64,000 nucleotides of DNA from Bacteroidales bacterium (GTDB taxonomy: Bacteria > Bacteroidota > Bacteroidia > Bacteroidales > P3): NCBI GenBank assembly GCA_031256055.1, contig JAIRRI010000199.1:5272-69271 (forward strand), in the 5' to 3' direction. The position numbers and the translations under genes are program-made. This document shows, one piece after another, positions 45,018-57,366 of the stretch (its first letter is position 1; every line of letters starts with the position of its first letter). The notes under the pieces are model-generated. The model did no database searches. It was not told the DNA's origin and was given only the letters and a program-made list of their open reading frames with translations.

Positions 45018-45147
45018 ATCACAAAATTACGCAAAAAAATAAGAAGATTTTAGTATATTAAGTGTTGGTTTCTAACAAAAGATTGTTAAAACGGAAAAAC
45101 TCTTATCTTTGTGTATGAAATTAGCTATTAAAGACCATCTTTCTAAG

Positions 45148-45221
45148 TGGAGAGTAACGGAATCGAACCGTCGACCTTTTGACTGCCAGTCAAACGCTCT
45201 AGCCAACTGAGCTAACCCCCC
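45148..45221 (-). tRNA. tRNA-Ala (anticodon GGC)
   Basis: The reverse complement is GGGGGGTTAGCTCAGTTGGCTAGAGCGTTTGACTGGCAGTCAAAAGGTCGACGGTTCGATTCCGTTACTCTCCA. It carries the G3:U70 identity pair and the anticodon loop CTGGCAG. A -7 box TATCTTTG lies at 45241-45248 on the minus strand. Confidence 0.9.
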
Positions 45222-47396: not shown

Positions 47397-47493
47397 AATT
47401 CCATAGTCAAAGTTAAGGTTTTTTGTGCTCTGTTCTCTGTGTACGGAGTTAGTTAGGAAGTCCACAGACTAAAATAACTATAATCTTTTTCAT
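47397..47493 (-). pseudogene. vestige of an immunity-like gene 3' end plus its downstream flank
   Basis: 47397-47463 aligns at about 75% identity with 53753-53818, the last codons and 3' flank of the 53804-54469 gene. A 14-codon ORF (47449-47493, MKKIIVILVCGLPN*) ends with the same GLPN-stop. Confidence 0.6.
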
Positions 47494-47508
47494 TTTGTTT
47501 TCTTTCTA

Positions 47509-48150
47509 CTATCGTTGGAAACAGTAACGTTTACGAGTGTGTGCGTCAGAAGGCACTGTTAATTCTCTAACAAAATAATATAGATTTTTCAGTAAATCAT
47601 CATTTGGAAATGTCATAGCCGGCAACCTATATTCTCCATATCTTTTTTTGTTTTCATCTTTCAGCACAAAGTATGTAGAAATTGGAGTGCCATATATGTT
47701 AGTTTCTTTTGCTTCAACATACGTTACAAAATCAGTGCTATACAGGTCCGTGCTAAACGCATTTTCTACCGCTTGCTTGTCGCTTTTTAAACGTTCTAAA
47801 CATTCTCGTTTTTGCTTTGAAAGAAATCTCTTTGCTTTCAGCTTCACAATTTCTTTGTTGATATTATTGTAACTGTTTCGCTTTTCTAGCTTCACTACAT
47901 TACAAAATTCGTCTATGTGCACAACATATTCCTTGTAATTGTTATTTTCTTGAATTATAACATAATATTCTCTATCTAAATGTGAATATAGTATTTTTTT
48001 ACCAGATATTGTATCAAATTTAGATAGCACAACATCTGCTTTTGCGCGACTCACCATAGCCAAAGAATCGTTTTCTATCTTCCAGTCACACTGAGCATAA
48101 CAAAAGCTCGCAAAAAAGAGAGCTATGCAAATTGTTACAATTTTTCTCAT
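47509..48150 (-). CDS. signal-peptide protein, candidate immunity protein for the upstream HExxH protein
   Basis: It has the signal peptide MRKIVTICIALFFASFCYAQ and no recognisable domain. It lies directly downstream of the toxin-like gene. The start is set at 48150, because a -7 box overlaps the track start at 48180. Confidence 0.45.
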   Translation of the reverse strand: MRKIVTICIALFFASFCYAQCDWKIENDSLAMVSRAKADVVLSKFDTISGKKILYSHLDREYYVIIQENNNYKEYVVHIDEFCNVVKLEKRNSYNNINKEIVKLKAKRFLSKQKRECLERLKSDKQAVENAFSTDLYSTDFVTYVEAKETNIYGTPISTYFVLKDENKKRYGEYRLPAMTFPNDDLLKNLYYFVRELTVPSDAHTRKRYCFQR

Positions 48151-48177
48151 TATAATTATTTTTCCCTTACTGACCGA

Positions 48178-48185
48178 CAAAGATA
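48178..48185 (-). promoter_or_regulatory. -7 box (TATCTTTG) dedicated to the immunity-like gene
   Basis: TAnnTTTG on the minus strand, 28 nt upstream of the ATG at 48150. Confidence 0.5.
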
Positions 48186-48203
48186 CGAAAATAATAATAA
48201 TAA

Positions 48204-48235
48204 AACAAGGCGACCTTGAAAAAAGTCGCCTTGTT
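48204..48235 (-). terminator. hairpin (11-bp stem AACAAGGCGAC/GTCGCCTTGTT) followed by a T/A-rich tract, between toxin-like and immunity-like genes
   Basis: Perfect stem read from the sequence. On the minus strand it is followed by TTTATTATTATTATTTT. Confidence 0.55.
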
Positions 48236-48262
48236 GTTGTAATTTCGCAGTTGACATTTTTT

Positions 48263-49390
48263 TCATTTTGTTATTGGAAGTTGGTATGGATCTCCCAAAT
48301 TACCATATCCGGCATGACCTCTCCCATCCCATCTTGGCATACCCAATATTCGTCTAATTAAATTATCAGTACGAACTGCATTTGCATTGTTTTCATCACC
48401 GAATATACCTCTTGCGGCAGGAATGCCATGACCAAAAACTTCATGTCCAAAAATTACAGCTCTTTTTTTAGGTTCTAATCCTCTCATTATAAAAAAATGC
48501 AAGTTTTCTTCTGTTAGTATACTTAGCCCATCTCCTCCTTCATTTTTTATCCAACTAGCATGTACGTTATCATCTTTAAATAATGTTTTAGCCGTCTCTT
48601 CGCCCCATTTTTTAATCTGTTCTTTTATAAATAATTTTGCACCTTCCGAAGAAATATTGCTTCCTTCTGTAACATATTCGACCTTGAATATTTTTTCTGA
48701 ATTAATGGTGTTTACCACCATGTTAATATAAGTTGCTTCATTCGGATCTTGTATTTTTGCTAATATAGGCGCTAATTCATCGTTGTTGATTTTTTTTAAA
48801 GTTTTTCCTTCTGTTACTATCAATGCACGAACATCTGAAAATTTATTGTTTGCTAATACTCTATGTATATCATCTTTCATTTTCTTTGCATCATCTGCAG
48901 ATATTCCCCAAATTCCACCATTGTTTTCCTTTAATACATTTTTGCCTTCTACATTTTTACCTTCGTAATATGCCGTAATTTTAACCACTCTATTTGTGTT
49001 ATTCGGATTTTTCTTGTCTTTTTCAAATTTGAACGCATTTTTTATAATTAAAGTATCGTCTTTTTCTTTAGTTTTTGTACGTTCGGTTTCAAAAATCTTT
49101 CCATTTATTTCCTCTATTTTGATTTTGATTTTATCGCCTCTTTGAAAGCCTTTGGTTTCTATTTTCACACTTACCCATTTATTAGAAAGTGTTTGGTTTA
49201 TTTCTTTTTTCGTGTTGCCATTATCAACCCATTTCACAGAAATAATATCTTTTTCTTTTTTACCGACATTTTTTTCTTCTTTACCAGCATTTTTGAGTGT
49301 TTCTTCCGCTTCCTCTTCTGCCTTAGTGTCAATAAAACGTTGGTACTTCCCATCGGTTAATTCTAAAGCTATTTCTTCGTATGTTTTCAT
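48263..49390 (-). CDS. HExxH zinc-metallopeptidase-like protein (toxin-like, here called P1) with the shared N-terminal leader
   Basis: 375 aa with no signal peptide. It has the N-terminal leader KTYEEIALEL...YQRFIDTKAEEEAEE, a beta-rich middle, and a C-terminal VIFGHEVFGHGIP (HExxH). Confidence 0.6.
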   Translation of the reverse strand: MKTYEEIALELTDGKYQRFIDTKAEEEAEETLKNAGKEEKNVGKKEKDIISVKWVDNGNTKKEINQTLSNKWVSVKIETKGFQRGDKIKIKIEEINGKIFETERTKTKEKDDTLIIKNAFKFEKDKKNPNNTNRVVKITAYYEGKNVEGKNVLKENNGGIWGISADDAKKMKDDIHRVLANNKFSDVRALIVTEGKTLKKINNDELAPILAKIQDPNEATYINMVVNTINSEKIFKVEYVTEGSNISSEGAKLFIKEQIKKWGEETAKTLFKDDNVHASWIKNEGGDGLSILTEENLHFFIMRGLEPKKRAVIFGHEVFGHGIPAARGIFGDENNANAVRTDNLIRRILGMPRWDGRGHAGYGNLGDPYQLPITK

Positions 49391-49424
49391 AATATTTTAT
49401 TTTTTAATTGTTAAACAAAAACAA

Positions 49425-49454
49425 AAGAGTGCCTGCCCTGCTGCAAGCACTCTT
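49425..49454 (-). terminator. GC-rich hairpin (AAGAGTGC/GCACTCTT) followed by a T-rich tract, downstream of the 1172-aa gene
   Basis: 8-bp stem. On the minus strand it is followed by TTGTTTTTGTTT. Confidence 0.55.
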
Positions 49455-49467
49455 CTTGCAGTTTAGG

Positions 49468-52400
49468 TTAGTTGTTTTTTTCGTTACCATTACCTAATTC
49501 GGCGTTGCTGCCTTTTATTGCATCGGCGTCAAGCACCGGCAACCCTTCGGCATCTATTGCCACACCGCCTCTTTGCAAGGCTATCAGGTTGGTCGGCAGC
49601 ATGGTTTCCCAAGAATCCTCTATTTCGTATTCCTGTTCTTTGAGCTCATCTACAATAGATAGATACAGCGAGTCGCCAATAACCGGCATTGCGCCTCCAT
49701 CCCATATCTGCCCTTTTGTCATATAGAGCGCTACTGCATCTTCGAAGCCCGGTCTCACCGTTACAACTACTCTTGCCATTCCCGCTTGCATGAAACTGCG
49801 GAACGTAGCATCGTCGCTGTCGAATTTGTATAGGTTTGCCCACTCATTTTTGTTTGCCCAGTAATAAGGATAGAACGAGTAACTCATCAATTCCCAATCA
49901 AATGCCTGCTCCATAAATTTTACAAAACTGCTGTAGTCATCCATTTTTTTGGTTAAATTAACTTGATGTTCGGTTAATGTCGTCCCACTGTACATTTCTA
50001 ATCCAAATTTTTTCACGGAATTTGGATTTTTGTGGTCTAGAAGATAGGAAATGCAGTTTTTTCTTAATACGGTTTGTTCTATCTGACGGTAAAACATTGG
50101 ATTGCTGTCTAATATTTGTACGCCTATCTCCTTTTTTTCAGCAAGAGATTGATTGTAGGTAGCCAACTGACGCTCGTATCCTTCCATAATTCTTTCAAAA
50201 GTTTCTCTTTTCCATTGCTCTATTTTTGTATCATCTAATTTAAGATTAATAGAAAAGGCAATACCAAAAGACATATAATTCAAAAGACTATAGCTGAAAG
50301 AAATACTATCTTTATATCCAACCAAAGAATATTTATCATTCCAATTTCTGCCAATCAGGTTAAATTCTGTAAGATCCTTCCTTATTAGGTTTTCGGTATG
50401 AGCATACAGTCCAATATCACCGAATGCTATGTTTACAGCGTGTCGTTGTCCAGAATTGTCCTGATCCCATTTGGCAGAAAATTTCAGTGAAGCATCCACC
50501 GTGATATAACCTTCGGGCAATTGAATGTCTGCTGTACCTTCATGCATCTCGTTGGCTCCTGCTTCTACTCCTGCAAAAGATTTACTCACACTTAAAGTTT
50601 CTTTTGGATATTCATTAACCGAAGCACCGTATTTTGCAGCCAACTCTTGATAGTTATTTTTAGTAATTTTGGTAAAATCAGAGTATTTATCTCTCGGGTC
50701 TATTGGTTCTTCCAACGTTACAGTATTACTATCACTATTACTGCTCACTGTCATAGCAATTTGATGCAGTTTGCCCGGCTGAGGTACCATAAATTCATAC
50801 ATCAACCGCTTGCCGTAATTGAAAATACGGTTTTTGTAAATAGCATTGATAAACCTGTATACACCTGAAACGTGTTCGCCGCTTTTTGTGTTATCAAAAA
50901 GATGTTTGTTTGTTTCCGTAAACTCTTCGGTCGTACTTACCGTTTTTTCATTTTTCACTCTTGCAAGAATACGCTCCGAAGCTCGCTGTGTAATTTCTTT
51001 AGCCTGACTAATCGCCTGTCTGTTGCTCTCCTGTTTTGAAACACTTGATGCGTAACTCGCTCCGGCGTTGATAGTTGCAGCCCCCCATTTAGCACTCACA
51101 TTAGCGTAAGCGGAAACTTGCCGGTCTTCCTGCAATAGTTTTGAAATTTCGTTTTGCATTTCAAACCTTTCGGCAGAAGAGGTATCGGTTATTTTTTCGG
51201 TTTCTATCTCTTGGCTGTTTGTTTCTACGATTTGTCTTTGATGGAATCGTTTTGTAGATTTCTCTCTGAGTTCGCGAGCCATTACATTTTCTATATGTGC
51301 CACCTCACCTGCTTCGTATCGGCATACTTTCGATACTACTTTTTGGTAATCGGCAATACCTAATCTGCGGTATCCAAATGTATTCGGTTGAAAATCTTTT
51401 TCTGTATCAAGTTTCTTTGTCCCAAAATTTTCCAACCTGCCACCAGCCGGAGTCGCGGAATTGATACTTGTTGCAAATGCTTGTACTTGTCCATTTGTAA
51501 ACGTAATTTTGCCTGACATACCTGTTGCTTGAGTAGAAGCCGGCAGGGTGTTGTTAAACAGATTGCTTAAAGTCACCACATTTCCATTAGACGATGAATT
51601 AAAATAACTGTCAGTAATGCCGCCGCCGTTTTTGCTGCCGTTATCTAAAGTATATGCAATTTTTTGTACATCGTAGCCGTTTGGCAATAGAATATTCATA
51701 CACATGCCGACATTGCCATTTATCAACTTACTGCTGCAAATTTGGAATTTGAACAGATCTTGCGCAGGAACAAAATTGCCTGCTTGAATGGCAGTGTCGC
51801 CAAAAACTACTATCTGTTCTGAAGTTTTTATTTTTTTTACAGCCTGCTGTTCTACATTTTCTAATTGACTTGTCAAAACTTGCTTTAATTTAGTACAAGA
51901 TGCAATATTTTTCAATTCCCCGACCTGAGTTGAAAGTATAGCAAGAGAATCAGCTGAAAGTTTTGTCTGCACTGTTGACATATCCGGTTCCTGTGGATAT
52001 TCAAATACAAATTCTGGCAGTTCGGGATATTCCACATCCGGCTGGTTGTAAGGTCTATCGCGGAGGTCGTGTTGAGAGCTGCCATACTTTGCGTCTAACT
52101 GGTTGTCAATCTCCCTTAACTGCTCATTATATGTCTTTTGATAGTTAGAAATCAGTTCTTTTATTTTTCCGTGATTCTCTTTTTGAAATTCCGCCAATTC
52201 TTTTTTATATGCTATTTCCCCTTCTTCGCGATGATTAGCCTCTATTTCGTTCAGTTCAGACAAAATACCTTCAATATTAGCTGTTGCAATTCTTGCTTCC
52301 TCTATCTGTTGTGCATCCACAAGTTCTTTGGGTACAATACCGTCATACTCTCCTTCCTCGTCTGCAATTGTGGCATTTTGCATTAATGCAAGTTCGTCAA

Positions 52401-52986
52401 AGAGTTCAGCCGGCAGCACTACCCTTGCCGAAAGCAGTTGTTTTGTTTCTTCTTCATCACGAAGTTCAGTAAAAACATCTTTGTTTCTCAGAATATTTTG
52501 CAAAACAAGCAACTGCATAACCGCCTCTTTTACATAAAAATCCTTTTGCGTAAGCACCTGATAATACAAATTATCCCAAAGTTCAACCTCGTCAGAAGGT
52601 TTCAGCTCTCCTAACCCGTCTAATTTTTCTACTAAATCAGTTGAATTAAGAATAGCTCTGTTTCGGGTAATCCAGTCGGCTAACTCAAGATGTTGCGGAT
52701 ACAAATCTGCTATTTCTTTTTCATTTTGAAAAGCAGGAAAGGTTTCTGCTGCAGAAACCATTGTATCCCATTTAGTAGAATTTTTTTCTTTTTCATTTAA
52801 AGGGAGAACTATTGTATCCCCTTTAAGGTTTTTCGTTCCATTCTGTGCTGCAGGATAAAAAACTCCGCCAACAGGGTCAGGATTTAAAACAAAACGTCTG
52901 TCTTGATTTTCTTTTTTTGTTAATTCAGGGCTTCGCAAACTTACTAAGCGGAATAACGTGTTTTGATTGTTTAGGTCTTGATTCAT
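49468..52986 (-). CDS. 1172-aa protein of unknown function (no signal peptide, no TM, acidic, coiled-coil-rich N-terminal third)
   Basis: It is a long uninterrupted ORF with coding-like composition. I recognise no catalytic or structural family. Notable motifs are YEAGEVAHIENVMARE and YSFYPYYWANKNEW...ARVVVTVRPGFEDA. Confidence 0.8.
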   Translation of the reverse strand: MNQDLNNQNTLFRLVSLRSPELTKKENQDRRFVLNPDPVGGVFYPAAQNGTKNLKGDTIVLPLNEKEKNSTKWDTMVSAAETFPAFQNEKEIADLYPQHLELADWITRNRAILNSTDLVEKLDGLGELKPSDEVELWDNLYYQVLTQKDFYVKEAVMQLLVLQNILRNKDVFTELRDEEETKQLLSARVVLPAELFDELALMQNATIADEEGEYDGIVPKELVDAQQIEEARIATANIEGILSELNEIEANHREEGEIAYKKELAEFQKENHGKIKELISNYQKTYNEQLREIDNQLDAKYGSSQHDLRDRPYNQPDVEYPELPEFVFEYPQEPDMSTVQTKLSADSLAILSTQVGELKNIASCTKLKQVLTSQLENVEQQAVKKIKTSEQIVVFGDTAIQAGNFVPAQDLFKFQICSSKLINGNVGMCMNILLPNGYDVQKIAYTLDNGSKNGGGITDSYFNSSSNGNVVTLSNLFNNTLPASTQATGMSGKITFTNGQVQAFATSINSATPAGGRLENFGTKKLDTEKDFQPNTFGYRRLGIADYQKVVSKVCRYEAGEVAHIENVMARELREKSTKRFHQRQIVETNSQEIETEKITDTSSAERFEMQNEISKLLQEDRQVSAYANVSAKWGAATINAGASYASSVSKQESNRQAISQAKEITQRASERILARVKNEKTVSTTEEFTETNKHLFDNTKSGEHVSGVYRFINAIYKNRIFNYGKRLMYEFMVPQPGKLHQIAMTVSSNSDSNTVTLEEPIDPRDKYSDFTKITKNNYQELAAKYGASVNEYPKETLSVSKSFAGVEAGANEMHEGTADIQLPEGYITVDASLKFSAKWDQDNSGQRHAVNIAFGDIGLYAHTENLIRKDLTEFNLIGRNWNDKYSLVGYKDSISFSYSLLNYMSFGIAFSINLKLDDTKIEQWKRETFERIMEGYERQLATYNQSLAEKKEIGVQILDSNPMFYRQIEQTVLRKNCISYLLDHKNPNSVKKFGLEMYSGTTLTEHQVNLTKKMDDYSSFVKFMEQAFDWELMSYSFYPYYWANKNEWANLYKFDSDDATFRSFMQAGMARVVVTVRPGFEDAVALYMTKGQIWDGGAMPVIGDSLYLSIVDELKEQEYEIEDSWETMLPTNLIALQRGGVAIDAEGLPVLDADAIKGSNAELGNGNEKNN

Positions 52987-53069
52987 TTTTTTAATGTTTA
53001 ATGATTTTTAATTTTTTTTTAACTGATTTTAATTTTTTTTGATTGCGCAATGTTTTTTTAGTTATGAAT

Positions 53070-53118
53070 TATGGTTGCCGAGCTTTGGTCACTGAGCTTG
53101 TCGAAGTGCCGAAGCATG
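53070..53118. repeat. GC-rich intergenic repeat (..CCGAGCTTTGGTCACTGAGCTTGTCGAAGTGCCGAAG..)
   Basis: It stands out against the AT-rich island. It is related in wording to the element at 6377-6424 and is flanked by AGTTATGAAT on both sides. Confidence 0.55.
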
Positions 53119-53120
53119 AG

Positions 53121-53615
53121 TTATGAATGTATTTTCTTTTTTAAGAATGGGAAAATAATGAGAAAAACGATACTGATTAGGATTAGCCAAAATGTTAAAC
53201 CCAAACCAAGCTTTCCGCCGACTTGTTTGTCGGTTTTGGTAATTGTTTGCTCGGTGCTGTTTTCATGGGTTTGTTTATTTTGATTGGTTTCAATGTTGGT
53301 TTGTATATTGATTTCGGTTTGCGTATTGGTTTTGGTTTGTTTTTGTGTGCTTGTTGTTGTGCGTTGTTTGAGAGGGGGTGCTTTGGTGGTTGGGTCAATC
53401 GGTTTGTCTGTATCAAAAATTTCAACAACAGTGGTAATTTCAACATCTGTTTCGGTATTTGTTGTTTGGGCGATTTGAACCGCTTGAATTGTTGTTATGG
53501 TTGTTTGCTCTATTTCCGTTTTTGTGGTTTCCTGCGCGGTTTCGCTTATGCGTTTAACTGAACCGCAACCGCACAGCAACAAACTAATGAGTAGTATGGT
53601 AAATATTTTTTTCAT
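53121..53615 (-). CDS. T/Q-rich lipoprotein with C-terminal transmembrane anchor (unimolecular-spanin-like architecture)
   Basis: 164 aa with an N-terminal lipobox (LLLCGCGS), a low-complexity T/Q/E/N middle, and the C-terminal TM LGLGLTFWLILISIVFLIIFPFL followed by KKK. Confidence 0.55.
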   Translation of the reverse strand: MKKIFTILLISLLLCGCGSVKRISETAQETTKTEIEQTTITTIQAVQIAQTTNTETDVEITTVVEIFDTDKPIDPTTKAPPLKQRTTTSTQKQTKTNTQTEINIQTNIETNQNKQTHENSTEQTITKTDKQVGGKLGLGLTFWLILISIVFLIIFPFLKKKIHS

Positions 53616-53803
53616 TTGCTATTTTTTTTGATTTTTTTGATAATAAATGTAACGCTATAGGCATGGCTTAGCCAAGGCATGGGTTATAAACCCGCGCTTG
53701 CAGAGAGGCAGTATCGGTTTCGAGACAGCCTCTATTTGCTTTTTGAATGTGAAATTCCGAGTCGGAGATGAGAGTTTTTAGGCTCTATTCTTTGTAGTCG
53801 GAA

Positions 53804-54469
53804 TTAGTTAGGAAGTCCTGTCCATTCCTGCTCTTTATTCAATAATAATTCAAACTCCAGAGGAATAGAATTTATTCTAATAAGTGAGTCAAAATAAGTA
53901 TAACCTGATACATTTTCCATCCTTACAAGGATGAAAGATTTGTCATAAAAGATTCTATGTAAAGGAGCATCTTCCGCTAACCCAATTTTATAATAAAACT
54001 CATAGGTTTCAATATAATTATTTTCACCTAACTTTATTTTTTTTTCTCCGATAAAACAATGAGTTTTTGCAGCAAAGCTGTTGTCAATAAAGTAGTCGTT
54101 TGGTTCAACAGGAGGAATCCATACTATACAAGAATCTACATACTTTGTTGATAAATATAAACTCTTTGTACCATCCGCTTTTTTCGGCACAAACATACAG
54201 TTCTTCGTTAATATGAAATAGTCAATTTCTTTTTTTGTTATTTCTTTTGCGAAATCACTATATCTATACGTTATTTGTTTTCTTCTATTGCCTTTGTCAA
54301 TAGTTTTGGTTGCCAGATAGGAAGTAGGGTTTGAACTTCCAAAAGTATAATTTTCATAATAGTGTTCTTTTGTTATAGTTCGCTCTTTACAAGCAGTAAA
54401 TAACAAAAGAAAAATAGAAATAAATAGAGACCTATTTATTACGTAGGTGTGAACGTAGTGAGTCATCAT
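53804..54469 (-). CDS. lipoprotein-signal protein, candidate immunity protein for P2
   Basis: 221 aa with the hydrophobic leader FISIFLLLFTAC. It overlaps the 3' end of P2 by 38 nt. I recognise no domain. Confidence 0.45.
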   Translation of the reverse strand: MMTHYVHTYVINRSLFISIFLLLFTACKERTITKEHYYENYTFGSSNPTSYLATKTIDKGNRRKQITYRYSDFAKEITKKEIDYFILTKNCMFVPKKADGTKSLYLSTKYVDSCIVWIPPVEPNDYFIDNSFAAKTHCFIGEKKIKLGENNYIETYEFYYKIGLAEDAPLHRIFYDKSFILVRMENVSGYTYFDSLIRINSIPLEFELLLNKEQEWTGLPN

Positions 54470-55475
54470 GGCTTTTTTTTGCTTTATCTATATTTGTGGA
54501 ATTAAAAAACTTTTTTAACTGCAAAATATAATTGTTAAATTTTTTAAGTTGTGGATGTGTTCCTTTAAAGTAACTTGTATGTTCTGCCTCTCCGCGTCCG
54601 CGTATTTGTGCCAGTTTATTATATGCGTCCTTACCCCCTTTGTTATATGCGTCTATAAATTGAGGAGCCTGATTATCCATATGAAGAAATGCTTCATGTC
54701 CAATAACTATTGCATAAGATTCTTTACCCAAACCATCCTTGTTATCATTCATAGGATCGACATTTAACAAAATATCAAATTCTAAATTATTTTTTCCTGC
54801 TCTATGGCGAAACTCCCCTTCACTTCCAGAGTTTTGGTCTTGTTCAATAATATTAAGGCTATGGTTGGAGTATTTTCCATTTTCTTTAAATTCGACACTG
54901 CCGATTTTTTGCCCTTTTGTTGCATATTGGGATAAGAATGCGTATCCTTCTTTTGTTTTAGCAAAGATTTCTAATAGTTCTGCCGTTTGATTATTTAAAT
55001 GTCCCAGATGGTATTTTCCCCATTCATTTCCGTCATGTACATAATGCCATATACGAAGATTTCCTTTAACAGAATTTGACACACATTCCAACTCAAACGG
55101 CTCAGAGTCTGCCGACACTCCATCGCATACAATAGTTACAGTGTATTTAGATTTTGGAGTTATTAGGTTTTGAGGAACAGGTACGGTTATTTGCTTCTGA
55201 CCCTTGGGGTTTATAAAGTAAGATATAAAAGGTATACGCCTCCCATTAACCAAAGCCGTAGCTCTGTCTGTTTTCAAATTTTTTGCAGTAACGTTGAACG
55301 TTACTTCGACTGTTTTAGCTTCCTTTTCAGAAGGTTTACATCCGATATATTTTATAGAAAGTCCTTTGGGGTTGTTTTTTGCTTCTTCCGCTTCTTCCTC
55401 TGCCCTTCTGTTAATAAAGCATTGGTACGTAGGGTTTAATTTTAAAGCTATTTGTTCGTATGTTTTACTTGGCAT
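54432..55475 (-). CDS. HExxH zinc-metallopeptidase-like protein (toxin-like, here called P2) with the shared N-terminal leader
   Basis: 347 aa with no signal peptide. It has the N-terminal leader KTYEQIALKL...YQCFINRRAEEEAEE, an Ig-like beta-rich middle, and VIGHEAFLHMD (HExxH). Confidence 0.6.
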   Translation of the reverse strand: MPSKTYEQIALKLNPTYQCFINRRAEEEAEEAKNNPKGLSIKYIGCKPSEKEAKTVEVTFNVTAKNLKTDRATALVNGRRIPFISYFINPKGQKQITVPVPQNLITPKSKYTVTIVCDGVSADSEPFELECVSNSVKGNLRIWHYVHDGNEWGKYHLGHLNNQTAELLEIFAKTKEGYAFLSQYATKGQKIGSVEFKENGKYSNHSLNIIEQDQNSGSEGEFRHRAGKNNLEFDILLNVDPMNDNKDGLGKESYAIVIGHEAFLHMDNQAPQFIDAYNKGGKDAYNKLAQIRGRGEAEHTSYFKGTHPQLKKFNNYILQLKKFFNSTNIDKAKKSHDDSLRSHLRNK

Positions 55476-55515
55476 GATATTTTATTTTTTTAATTGTTAA
55501 ACTGTTTTTTTATAA

Positions 55516-55647
55516 CTAATTCAACACACAAAGATAAGAATTTTTATTTGATTTAAACAATTTATTCTGCAAATTCTTTCGCGTGTTTGTTGTTGTGCGT
55601 TGTTTGAGGGGGGGCGCTCTGGAGATCGGCGCAATCATTTTTTTCAT
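55516..55647 (-). pseudogene. internally deleted vestige of the u-spanin-like lipoprotein gene
   Basis: This 43-codon ORF (MKKMIAPISRAPPLKQRTTTNT...) retains the start region and about 35 nt near-identical to 53351-53386 (APPLKQRTTT). It has lost the lipobox and the TM. Confidence 0.6.
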
Positions 55648-55964
55648 TTGCTAATTTTTTTGATTTCTGTTGTGAGTTGATCGATTTGTTTTTGTAAATT
55701 TTCTACTTTGTCAGCAAGTCTTGAATTTTCTAACCACAAGGAGCGGTTTTTTGCTTGTTCTTTAACGAGCTTGTCAATAGTTTCAGTGTTATGGTGGCTC
55801 AAATCTGTGATTGATTTTAACAACGGTGCAATAGCTTTGTTGATAAGGTCTAAATCGGTTGCTTTTTTTTCGCGCGGAGTTTTGATTTTGGAAAACAACC
55901 AGCCCAAAGCACCTGCAACAAATGTGATTGCTGTATATTTTAATATGTCAAGTGCTAATTCCAT
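55644..55964 (-). CDS. small membrane protein, N-terminal TM + coiled coil (i-spanin-like or holin-like)
   Basis: 106 aa with the TM segment YTAITFVAGALGWLF followed by a heptad-rich coiled coil. Its start abuts the endolysin stop (TAAATG). Confidence 0.5.
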   Translation of the reverse strand: MELALDILKYTAITFVAGALGWLFSKIKTPREKKATDLDLINKAIAPLLKSITDLSHHNTETIDKLVKEQAKNRSLWLENSRLADKVENLQKQIDQLTTEIKKISK

Positions 55965-56447
55965 TTAGATAATAGTTTTTATTTCTTGAGAAATTCCGAT
56001 TGACCTCAACCACGTTTGCACATCGAACGAAGGACAAGCCTTTTTTGCAACTTCGTTGTGTCCGATAATGCGAACGGTTGGATGTTTGGCGTGAAAATCT
56101 TTGACGTATTTTTCGAGACTTATGCGTTGCGCAGCGGTTCGCGTATCTTTTGCAGATTTACCATCGGCTGTTAAACCACCAACGTAAACAATATGACGAC
56201 TTATGTCGTTGTATCCAACCGCGCCGTTGGTAATTTCCCACGCATCTACAAAAGCATCATCGTTGTTTTCAACAAGTCTTTCAATTGTTCCGTCCAAATG
56301 GAACATATCCGTATAACCGACTTGTTTCCAACCGTTGCCTTTTGGTGGAGGCGAGGTGTGCCACGTTCTAATATCTGAGGCTTTCACGTTTTGGTTTTCG
56401 GGCGTGGCTGTACAGTGGATTATTAGGTATTTTAGAGCTTTTTTCAT
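55965..56447 (-). CDS. N-acetylmuramoyl-L-alanine amidase (Amidase_2/PGRP, T7-lysozyme-like endolysin)
   Basis: 160 aa with the motifs IIHCTATPE, GYTDMFHLDG, IGHNEV and KACPSF. There is no signal peptide. Confidence 0.85.
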   Translation of the reverse strand: MKKALKYLIIHCTATPENQNVKASDIRTWHTSPPPKGNGWKQVGYTDMFHLDGTIERLVENNDDAFVDAWEITNGAVGYNDISRHIVYVGGLTADGKSAKDTRTAAQRISLEKYVKDFHAKHPTVRIIGHNEVAKKACPSFDVQTWLRSIGISQEIKTII

Positions 56448-56509
56448 TTTTCAACTTTTTTATTAGAATTTGAATTGTAATTATATTTGTCTATTTCATT
56501 TTTTTTTTG

Positions 56510-56557
56510 TAACTTTGCAAATCGTTAGTGTATTATTAGAAATTTTCTACAAAATTA
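56510..56557. promoter_or_regulatory. face-to-face divergent -7 boxes with a central palindrome (candidate genetic switch)
   Basis: TAACTTTG lies on the + strand at 56510-56517, and TAATTTTG on the - strand at 56550-56557. The palindrome TAGAAA-T-TTTCTA at 56537-56549 lies between them. Confidence 0.45.
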
Positions 56558-56625
56558 CAAAAAATATTTGATATAACCAAACTTTTTAGAAGAAAAATTA
56601 AATAAAAACTTAAATAATTTTCACT

Positions 56626-57366
56626 ATGGCTGATTTTCAAATTAATGAAAGGTTAGAAAAATTTATTAAAGAAGGATTAAAAATTACTCCTTTTGCTTTT
56701 TCAAAGTCTATAAATGATACTGGCGGTGTAAAAATATCAAAAATAATTAACAAAAAATACGGTGTTTCTAATAAAATATTAGATTTAGTGTGTGAAGCAC
56801 ATCCGGAAGTGAATCGTAGTTGGTTACTTACCGGAGAAGGGAATATGCTGAAATCCGATCCGTCCAAGCAACCCATTCAATTTTTCGATCCCGAAAATGC
56901 ACCGCATAACAAGCGATTGATACCGCTCTACGATGATGTCCTAACAGTAGGAGGAACGGATACCGTAGCACTAACCGAGGCTAATAGAGCGCCTGCCGAA
57001 TGGATTGATCCGGGCGATTGGTTTAAACCTGCAACACACGCCATTCGTCATTATGGTGAAAGTATGGTGGAATATCCAAAAGGCTGCATTCTTGCTTTGA
57101 AAGAAGTGCAAGATCGCCGTTTGGTTGTTCCGGGACAGGATTACGTTATTCAAACAAGCGAATATCGCGTAACTAAAAAAATACAACTTGGCAACAGTCC
57201 CGAATACATCATAGCACATAGCACAAATTACGAACGCTATGATGACCATTCGCTAATCCACCAACCATTCAATATCTATTGGGAGTTAATTACCAATATT
57301 TATGAGGTGCTTGGCTATGTTGTAAAAAAAGGTAGCGGAACAATTGTACTTAGTAATCAAAGATAG
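56626..57366 (+). CDS. cI/LexA-type repressor (N-terminal phage-repressor HTH + C-terminal S24 peptidase)
   Basis: 246 aa. The HTH region ends in the typical NRSWLLTGEGNM. The C-terminal domain has GESMVEYPKG (Ser nucleophile) and a downstream Lys (RVTKKIQ). Confidence 0.8.
   Translation: MADFQINERLEKFIKEGLKITPFAFSKSINDTGGVKISKIINKKYGVSNKILDLVCEAHPEVNRSWLLTGEGNMLKSDPSKQPIQFFDPENAPHNKRLIPLYDDVLTVGGTDTVALTEANRAPAEWIDPGDWFKPATHAIRHYGESMVEYPKGCILALKEVQDRRLVVPGQDYVIQTSEYRVTKKIQLGNSPEYIIAHSTNYERYDDHSLIHQPFNIYWELITNIYEVLGYVVKKGSGTIVLSNQR

Follow-up and report, generated by a model that had tools for sequence, protein, structure and literature searches.

A Bacteroidales chromosomal island with polymorphic-toxin cassettes, a large conserved protein and phage-type lysis genes suggests lysis-mediated toxin release

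The closest described counterparts of the locus analysed here are polymorphic toxin systems, colicin and S-pyocin operons, and type 10 secretion. The locus is an island at positions 47,397-57,366 of a 64,000-nt stretch of Bacteroidales DNA (hereafter the window; assembly GCA_031256055.1, contig JAIRRI010000199.1, positions 5,272 to 69,271 of the forward strand). On its minus strand it encodes two putative polymorphic toxins, P1 and P2, each with a periplasm-directed partner (lipoA, lipoB), a 1172-aa protein that we call BIG, a phage-type amidase and two candidate lysis accessory proteins (TMCC, lipoTM); a CI/LexA-like repressor candidate faces them on the plus strand. We propose that the island represents a widespread and undescribed kind of chromosomal polymorphic-toxin locus, with BIG as its hallmark and with toxins that are released by lysis, and we put the probability of this combined explanation at roughly 0.5. 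The searched literature contains no description of such an arrangement, in Bacteroidota or otherwise, or of the BIG family, in line with the sequence-only reading that preceded this analysis, which knew of none in Bacteroidota.

Polymorphic toxin systems (RHS, CdiA/CDI, type VI secretion system (T6SS) cargo effectors and MafB; PMC3482391) resemble the island in several respects: its toxins end in C-terminal tips that RHS proteins also carry, each toxin has a partner gene directly downstream, a conserved N-terminal part is joined to variable tips, DNA handles are available for cassette exchange, and sister loci carry arrays of orphan tips and immunity genes. In contrast to these systems, the island toxins have no RHS, filamentous, LXG, PAAR or other known trafficking domain and no signal peptide, but a ~35-residue leader and an unannotated BIG gene product of 1,100-1,400 aa encoded just upstream. 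A leader/BIG trafficking mode is not found in the searched parts of Zhang et al. 2012 (PMC3482391).

Colicin and S-pyocin operons share with the island a signal-less toxin with a candidate immunity gene, a lysis function within the locus and a putative SOS-type (S24-family) repressor logic, and in both cases release presumably costs a subpopulation. However, the island is chromosomal and belongs to a Bacteroidales genome, it has a phage endolysin with membrane proteins rather than a small release lipoprotein, a dedicated CI-like repressor candidate rather than host LexA boxes (no search for LexA boxes was made), and short toxin cassettes without colicin-type receptor or translocation domains next to a separate giant conserved protein. 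Type 10 secretion (Serratia ChiWXYZ, Yersinia entomophaga Tc, Salmonella TtsA and Clostridioides difficile TcdE/TcdL; PMC10847048, PMC10101115) likewise places a domesticated phage lysis enzyme beside a large signal-less cargo, with spanin-like architecture and no virion genes. It differs in that the island lacks a recognisable holin and would be regulated by an S24-type repressor; moreover, its cargo is not chitinases or anti-host toxins but antibacterial polymorphic toxins, each with a candidate immunity gene. Bacteroidota go unmentioned in the leading type 10 secretion papers found in the literature search.

The strongest evidence concerns the toxins. P2 (54432..55475, minus strand; 347 aa) consists of a leader, an Ig-like middle and a C-terminal domain with the HExxH motif HEAFLH. 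Its residues 131-347 are 46% identical (E 8e-51) to the C-terminal tail of the RHS protein P0093, and the match starts directly past the end of the RHS core ('...YVDPDGRK'). P1 (48263..49390, minus strand; 375 aa) comprises a ~35-aa leader, a middle region and a C-terminal domain with the motif HEVFGH, and over its C-terminal ~58% it shares 42-50% identity with tips found on dozens of RHS repeat-associated proteins. In P1 and P2 together, the matched toxin part corresponds to the C-terminal ~220 residues, at 45-50% identity to RHS tips. Similarity between the two proteins is limited to the ~35-residue N-terminal leader and the immediate neighbourhood of the HExxH motif, and the leader is common to ~25 BIG-adjacent proteins with differing C-termini. 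Pfam, NCBIfam and PHROGs give no match to the N-terminal parts of P1 and P2, which contain neither a signal peptide nor a known trafficking domain, while no colicin or pyocin domain of Pfam or NCBIfam is matched by either protein. Hydropathy analysis (Kyte-Doolittle scale, KD) shows no hydrophobic N-terminus in P1, P2, BIG or the amidase and no hydrophobic segment at all in P1. The sequence-only reading had described P1 and P2 as HExxH proteins lacking signal peptides, as does BIG; both points hold, and the second extends to the amidase.

The partner genes fit this picture. lipoA (47509..48180, minus strand) is a 223-aa open reading frame (ORF) that more likely yields 213 aa from an ATG at 48150; its product carries a signal peptide with a hydrophobic N-terminus (KD 2.18), and its position directly downstream of P1 fits the toxin/signal-peptide-partner pairs of related loci. 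lipoB (53804..54469, minus strand) encodes a 221-aa lipoprotein (LFTA/C), and its start overlaps the 3' end of P2 by 38 nt. Lipobox-like signal peptides are found in lipoB and in the 164-aa lipoTM, the latter with an additional C-terminal transmembrane (TM) segment, all as first proposed. Neither lipoA nor lipoB matches a family in Pfam, PHROGs, NCBIfam or PADLOC; by position they are candidate periplasmic immunity proteins of P1 and P2, respectively. Of the two toxin-immunity-like modules seen earlier, the toxin part is supported by the homology of both tips to RHS tips, and each toxin has a periplasm-directed partner downstream that may confer immunity. At the level of sequence, P1 and P2 are polymorphic toxins with periplasm-directed partners, and we regard this, together with their linkage to the BIG family, as very likely.

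To characterize that linkage the neighbours of BIG were clustered over 80 genome loci. Of the 67 informative Bacteroidota loci, i.e. those with enough downstream DNA, 64 have a toxin-class gene no more than 6 kb downstream of BIG, and the BIG homologues, of ~1,100-1,400 aa, are encoded just upstream of the toxins. A long toxin class (~650-950 aa) carries Tox-MPTase4 (9 members), Gln_amidase (4), CdiA_C (2), YwqJ-deaminase, Ntox28, EndoU and similar domains; after it come arrays made up of small genes and orphan toxin fragments. The short class is P1/P2-like with the same leader; its members carry GH108, GH19 or Tle1-like phospholipase domains and have signal-peptide partners downstream. Some of the small neighbours contain SUKH immunity domains. 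A gene for a 120-aa Pol-beta-type nucleotidyltransferase-like protein, whose Pfam Polbeta match (4e-4) falls short of the curated cut-off, sits between BIG and the long toxin gene in L016 (13948-14310) and 17 other loci, often overlapping at start and stop codons, and a ~520-aa family with the N-terminus 'MSNIGKIIRVNALPP...NVIYQVA' lies downstream of BIG in 16 loci. Two tandem BIG copies are present in L018 (159-3827 and 9986-13816), and several Chryseobacterium species have several BIG loci per genome (L006/L043; L053/L065), each with its own toxin array.

BIG itself (49468..52986, minus strand; 1172 aa) has neither a signal peptide nor a TM segment and matches nothing in Pfam, PHROGs, NCBIfam, PADLOC or PDB sequences, either as a single sequence or as a profile. 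Its close relatives number 88, a one-genome-per-species collection contains at least 544 BIG loci, and the family forms at least 4,151 clusters at 50% identity. The sequence-only reading had called it an orphan without a recognisable domain; no family match was indeed found, yet with a family of this size BIG is no orphan. That reading also took it for released cargo on a par with P1 and P2 and did not recognise BIG as the conserved hallmark of the system. Two AlphaFold2 models, built from 30 and 78 sequences (predicted local distance difference test scores of 64 and 68), were used in three Foldseek searches. They predict a helical N-terminal region that includes a ~80-residue helix, two beta-sandwiches, one following the N-terminal region and a jelly-roll-like one past the core, and a helical or alpha-beta C-terminal region. 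The highly conserved core (residues ~520-760) is poorly resolved and is predicted as very long beta-hairpins in the second model. Foldseek returns no more than weak jelly-roll matches (TM-scores about 0.3-0.4), to the coat proteins of satellite tobacco mosaic virus, tymovirus and circovirus; they are not read as evidence for a capsid protein. BIG is also not an ordinary phage structural protein: it is absent from 50,697 phage records, and IMG/VR contains 5 BIG loci, three of which are Chryseobacterium chromosomal loci beside a tail cluster.

The DNA of the island further shows a cassette structure. The leader-coding sequence with ~35 nt upstream is 82-94% identical between P1 (49298-49416) and P2 (55380-55502), the remaining gene parts being unrelated, and the 3' flanks after lipoA (47405-47463) and lipoB (53760-53818) are 76% identical. 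These shared stretches are the recombination handles expected of exchangeable toxin cassettes. In addition, a truncated pseudo-copy of the 5' part of the 164-aa lipoTM gene (55577..55650, minus strand) lies directly after the 106-aa TMCC gene and overlaps its stop codon (ATGA). It is defined by two direct repeats, D1 (65 nt, 80% identity, 53341-53405 and 55577-55641) and D6 (30 nt, 97% identity, 53605-53634 and 55637-55666); one D6 copy spans the TMCC stop with the overlapping ATG, the other is located just upstream of the intact lipoTM gene. This duplicated junction and the truncated copy point to an ancestral order amidase, TMCC, lipoTM, with the latter pair translationally coupled, and to a later insertion of the P2-lipoB cassette into the TMCC/lipoTM junction, where the truncated lipoTM copy marks the insertion site.

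The amidase gene (55965..56447, minus strand) encodes a 160-aa phage-type N-acetylmuramoyl-L-alanine amidase resembling a T7-lysozyme-like endolysin, without a signal peptide or signal-arrest-release (SAR) segment. It matches Pfam Amidase_2 (2.2e-9) and phrog_822 'amidase' (8.5e-51) and reaches 72.7% identity with proteins annotated as endolysins in Porphyromonas phages, which confirms the initial assignment as an Amidase_2 endolysin; judged by these matches the lysis enzyme is phage-derived. The abutting TMCC gene (55644..55964, minus strand) encodes a 106-aa candidate holin-like or i-spanin-like lysis accessory protein with matches to PHROG_1009 (3e-7), PHROG_3671 (7.7e-6) and, weakly, the 'hol-like' PHROG_2658 (3e-5). 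Its N-terminal helix and C-terminal coiled coil are as originally described, but the helix is only moderately hydrophobic for a TM segment, no 19-residue window reaching KD 1.6. TMCC has no tblastn match in phage genomes, and we rejected it as a phage holin as it does not resemble the holin encoded after the homologous endolysin of the phages. lipoTM (53121..53615, minus strand) is a 164-aa lipoprotein with the lipobox LCG/C, a Thr/Gln-rich linker and a strong C-terminal TM helix (KD 2.78); lipobox and TM helix together correspond to a unimolecular-spanin architecture. Its PHROG matches are weak (Rz-like spanins with E 0.08-0.1, Cor with 4e-4), as are the PHROG spanin matches overall (E 0.002-0.1). 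Of the lysis cassette proposed from the letters, the phage-derived endolysin and the spanin-like architecture of lipoTM therefore stand, while a recognisable holin is missing.

Wall hydrolases recur at related loci. A signal-less Peptidase_M15_4 protein and a patatin-like phospholipase are encoded on the BIG strand in 17 of the 80 genome loci; they immediately precede BIG in Chryseobacterium and close the toxin array at its 3' end in Flavobacterium. The metagenomic relatives L083 and L087 contain this pair or M15_4 by itself, three IMG/VR loci have an M15-patatin pair, and L082 has a LysM-CHAP protein at the equivalent position. Signal-less wall hydrolases of three folds (Amidase_2, Peptidase_M15_4 and LysM-CHAP) thus recur at the edges of BIG/toxin loci, those of folds other than Amidase_2 beside BIG in no more than about a quarter of the loci. 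They are conserved where the toxins vary and have neither signal peptides nor the toxin leader, as expected for a core lysis function and not for cargo. A polymerase-like gene (phrog_1268 'DNA polymerase', 3.8e-120), possibly of a Y-family enzyme, lies just upstream of the M15-patatin pair in Chryseobacterium (L027:5965-7233), and a WYL/WCX-domain regulator ends many Chryseobacterium toxin arrays (L078:17415-18332); both may reflect DNA-damage-linked regulation or mere synteny.

The repressor candidate (56626..57366, plus strand; 246 aa) is predicted to combine an N-terminal DNA-binding region with a divergent S24-like C-terminal domain (GESM...K). It matches PHROG_4 'transcriptional repressor' (6.4e-11) over residues 6-237, shares 26% identity with proteins annotated as repressors in Porphyromonas and Bacteroides phages, and is homologous (1e-10 to 1e-13) to Flavobacterium proteins that match Peptidase_S24 at 4.2e-14, the GESM motif and a lysine aligning with GDSM and K of these homologues. 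In six Flavobacterium loci S24 repressor homologues are immediately divergent to BIG. A 237-aa divergent gene of L083 was considered as a further homologue and rejected by alignment. Between repressor and amidase lies a divergent control region (56448..56625) of 178 nt with 16% G+C. Bacteroidetes-type promoters, as known from Bacteroides, follow the consensus TTTG-N20-TAnnTTTG, and two matches to it face each other in this region, one directed towards the repressor (56486-56517, plus strand) and one towards the amidase (56581-56550, minus strand). The window holds 8 such matches, these 2 included, with 3.7 expected window-wide. The control region also contains an inverted repeat, I1.

Taken together, the lysis genes and the repressor suggest that lysis-mediated toxin release is plausible. 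The phage-derived S24 repressor would hold the leftward promoter silent. Upon induction, possibly by DNA damage, the amidase, TMCC, the spanin-like lipoprotein, P2 and BIG would be made, and P1 may be expressed by read-through. Some cells would then lyse and free BIG and the toxins, none of which could be exported by Sec, and the periplasmic partners would protect kin. Once outside the producer, BIG would serve as carrier, docking platform or translocator, with the conserved toxin leader as its handle. Regulated lytic release by a phage-derived module is, in our estimate, at even odds or slightly below. A wider proposal, that BIG is an unrecognised pan-prokaryotic machine which in Bacteroidota serves as an extracellular carrier, particle or translocon for leader-tagged toxins freed by programmed lysis of a subpopulation, is tentative and on balance doubtful. 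Such a machine would amount to a new mode of toxin trafficking, a modular chromosomal hybrid that joins lysis release as in colicins to cassette exchange as in polymorphic toxins.

A number of observations weigh against release by lysis. The repressor has no Pfam helix-turn-helix (HTH) or S24 match of its own and carries Val-Gly-Gly at the expected Ala-Gly cleavage site, where the homologues have Val-Ala-Gly; of the HTH plus S24 autocleavable repressor first proposed, the S24-family relationship has indirect support from PHROG_4, the Flavobacterium homologues and the GESM/Lys alignment, whereas a Pfam match of its own and the cleavage site are missing. Terminator-like hairpins directly 3' of the BIG stop codon (49423..49456, minus strand; 14-bp stem with 6 GC pairs and a T-run) and between P1 and lipoA (48204..48235, minus strand; 14-bp stem and a T-run) argue against one simple operon. 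Among the island ORFs hydropathy identifies no canonical multi-TM holin and no small multi-TM protein, and the spanin assignments are candidates drawn from architecture. In 63 of the 80 genome loci no M15 or Amidase_2 gene is present within 10 kb. A Pfam scan of 112 other small neighbours (130-300 aa, BIG strand, each representing one cluster) from the 63 loci lacking M15 identified no wall hydrolase among the 25 listed of 71 matched families. The absence of a hydrolase near BIG in 63 of 80 loci indicates that the lysis genes are accessory and not constant. The expected co-occurrence in other genomes is therefore seen in part, with hydrolases of three folds and with S24 repressors in six Flavobacterium loci, but not where M15 and Amidase_2 are missing. 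Finally, the predicted fold of BIG yields no functional clue in the AlphaFold2 models or Foldseek searches, and its C-terminal module is present in Gram-positive bacteria and an archaeon without recognisable toxins.

This last point deserves a closer look. Over its C-terminal ~600 residues BIG shares 26-34% identity with proteins of Bacillus thuringiensis, Tsukamurella, Sinorhizobium/Ensifer, Cupriavidus and Streptomyces and of the haloarchaeon Natronorubrum, and a protein of the cyanobacterium Aulosira matches more weakly (about 24%). Besides Bacteroidota, the C-terminal half is thus distributed over Firmicutes, Actinobacteria, Proteobacteria, one cyanobacterium and one haloarchaeon, and an N-terminal LFRFVxLR-like motif is recognisable in several of the distant proteins. 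Five of the corresponding loci (L097-L101; B. thuringiensis, S. meliloti, Tsukamurella, Natronorubrum and Streptomyces) are plasmid records. Each distant BIG-like gene is followed by an unrelated, unannotated gene and, in Natronorubrum, by a patatin-like phospholipase gene; these partners show no homology to each other or to the Bacteroidota neighbours and no Pfam match.

Such breadth across phyla fits poorly with a purely Gram-negative delivery role and keeps alive an intracellular alternative, an abortive-infection-type system in which BIG would have a sensor or scaffold function and the downstream toxins, together with the phospholipase and the wall hydrolase, would be phage-triggered suicide effectors. 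A pan-prokaryotic core with variable downstream partners would be in keeping with it, as would the patatin-like phospholipase gene that adjoins BIG in Bacteroidota and in the haloarchaeon, the nucleotidyltransferase-like gene after BIG in 18 loci, and the defence genes MmeI, SIR2, NERD and Mrr near some BIG loci. On the other hand there is no PADLOC match, the export-signal partners, SUKH immunity genes and orphan toxin arrays are hallmarks of inter-bacterial conflict, and periplasm-acting effectors without a signal peptide would find their target in the producer out of reach. We therefore regard a suicide system as highly improbable.

The phage ancestry of the lysis and repressor genes can be read differently. 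The island is AT-rich: it is the lowest-G+C 10-kb stretch of the window, ~2 standard deviations below the mean, but the difference (35.9% against 40.5% in the remaining window) is modest and far from the 20-30% against 47% estimated earlier by spot counts. All nine ORFs are present with the coordinates and in the order first listed. Scans of Pfam and PHROGs match none of the island ORFs to an integrase or virion family, confirming for every one of them the absence of integrase, terminase, portal, capsid and tail genes; cryptic virion proteins were likewise not detected with these two databases. A repeat search around the island found no boundary direct repeats or att-like flanking repeats. A tRNA-Ala(GGC) gene is located 2.2 kb to the left (45147-45221, minus strand). 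It was rejected as an integration site, since it is not adjacent to the island: two intact genes intervene, with ORFs of 178 aa and 468 aa, the latter encoding a signal peptide.

The amidase and, distantly, the repressor resemble genes of the same group of temperate Porphyromonas and Bacteroides siphophages (e.g. PP754930.1), which thus contain source-like relatives of both (73% and 26% identity). In these phages, however, the endolysin gene lies between capsid and holin genes, is followed by a multi-TM holin and is ~17 kb from the repressor gene, whereas the island has no capsid, tail, terminase, integrase or phage holin gene. Its parts are therefore phage-derived but stand in a non-phage arrangement. 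The amidase, TMCC, lipoTM and the repressor could still be the leftovers of a deleted temperate phage, beside or within which the BIG and toxin genes happened to land; the lysis genes would then play no part in toxin release. The shared Porphyromonas phage origin of amidase and repressor would be explained in this way, as would the P2-lipoB cassette interrupting the former TMCC/lipoTM junction, the missing lysis genes at most BIG loci and the contractile-tail cluster abutting the M15-patatin-BIG block in three Chryseobacterium loci. Against a prophage scar, none of the retained ORFs is disrupted, the island has neither an integrase nor att-like flanking repeats nor remnants of structural genes, and the repressor promoter faces the amidase promoter across just 178 nt. 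Moreover, equivalent positions in independent BIG lineages are occupied by S24 repressors and by hydrolases that are not homologous (M15_4, CHAP), which is not expected of repeated chance scars. We consider such a scar unlikely, though it retains more weight than the suicide system discussed above.

Tail-like particles provide a further point of comparison. In three Chryseobacterium loci the M15-patatin-BIG-toxin block stands back-to-back with a contractile-tail cluster of sheath, tube, tape-measure and baseplate genes, and tail-fibre-like proteins flank BIG, which recalls R-type tailocins and extracellular contractile injection systems (eCIS). The cluster comprises a sheath (phrog_907, 1e-39), tube, tape measure, baseplate and fibres, and the Chryseobacterium-type gene order is seen on the IMG/VR contigs L092, L095, L096 and L102. 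No head genes are present on the 33-kb contig carrying the cluster, so that it may represent a tailocin or eCIS. Large proteins flanking BIG in Chryseobacterium have local PHROG matches to tail fibre, tail spike and minor tail proteins (L030:13608-18389, L044:7718-9886, L060:6641-9784 and L074:6315-9707). The island differs from tailocins and eCIS in that neither the window nor most BIG loci contain a tail gene and BIG matches no tail, sheath or baseplate family. A link of BIG to tail-like particles in some lineages is possible.

The island could also be an orphan effector island of a contact-dependent machine encoded elsewhere, such as a T6SS of subtype iii (T6SSiii) or a phage-tail-like particle, with BIG as the adaptor or carrier that loads leader-bearing effectors and with amidase and TMCC as a third effector-immunity pair. 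T6SSiii is known in Bacteroidales, Flavobacterium and Chryseobacterium. The toxin tips common to RHS proteins, the Tle1-like, GH108 and GH19 effectors in sister loci, and the tail-fibre/spike-like flankers and adjacent contractile-tail cluster in Chryseobacterium (three loci) are compatible with this view. Yet the island contains no secretion-machine or tail gene, and none is a conserved BIG neighbour in 17 mapped loci; the amidase has no effector leader, is nearly identical to true phage endolysins and shows conservation, not polymorphism; and BIG-like proteins occur in Firmicutes, Actinobacteria and an archaeon, groups without T6SS. An effector island, including the reading of amidase and TMCC as its third pair, appears somewhat less probable to us than a prophage scar.

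Should the polymorphic-toxin locus with lysis-released toxins prove correct, polymorphic toxin systems would gain a further trafficking mode, in one of the phyla that dominate gut, soil and aquatic microbiomes. It would also extend type-10-like release by a lysis cassette to Bacteroidota and to inter-bacterial, not anti-host, toxins, and the unannotated BIG family, with its thousands of members, would become functionally accessible for the first time. As simple genomic markers, the conserved leader and the BIG gene are features with which toxin and immunity domains can be mined, and the modular cassettes are a possible engineering scaffold. Even if lytic release is wrong, the linkage of BIG to toxins in 64 of 67 loci would need explaining. 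A conserved ~240-aa protein ('MASTSETGH.KN.ANF'), which has no family match, accompanies BIG loci at varying positions, for example in L083 (8643-9356, minus strand) and L087 (10311-11051, plus strand).

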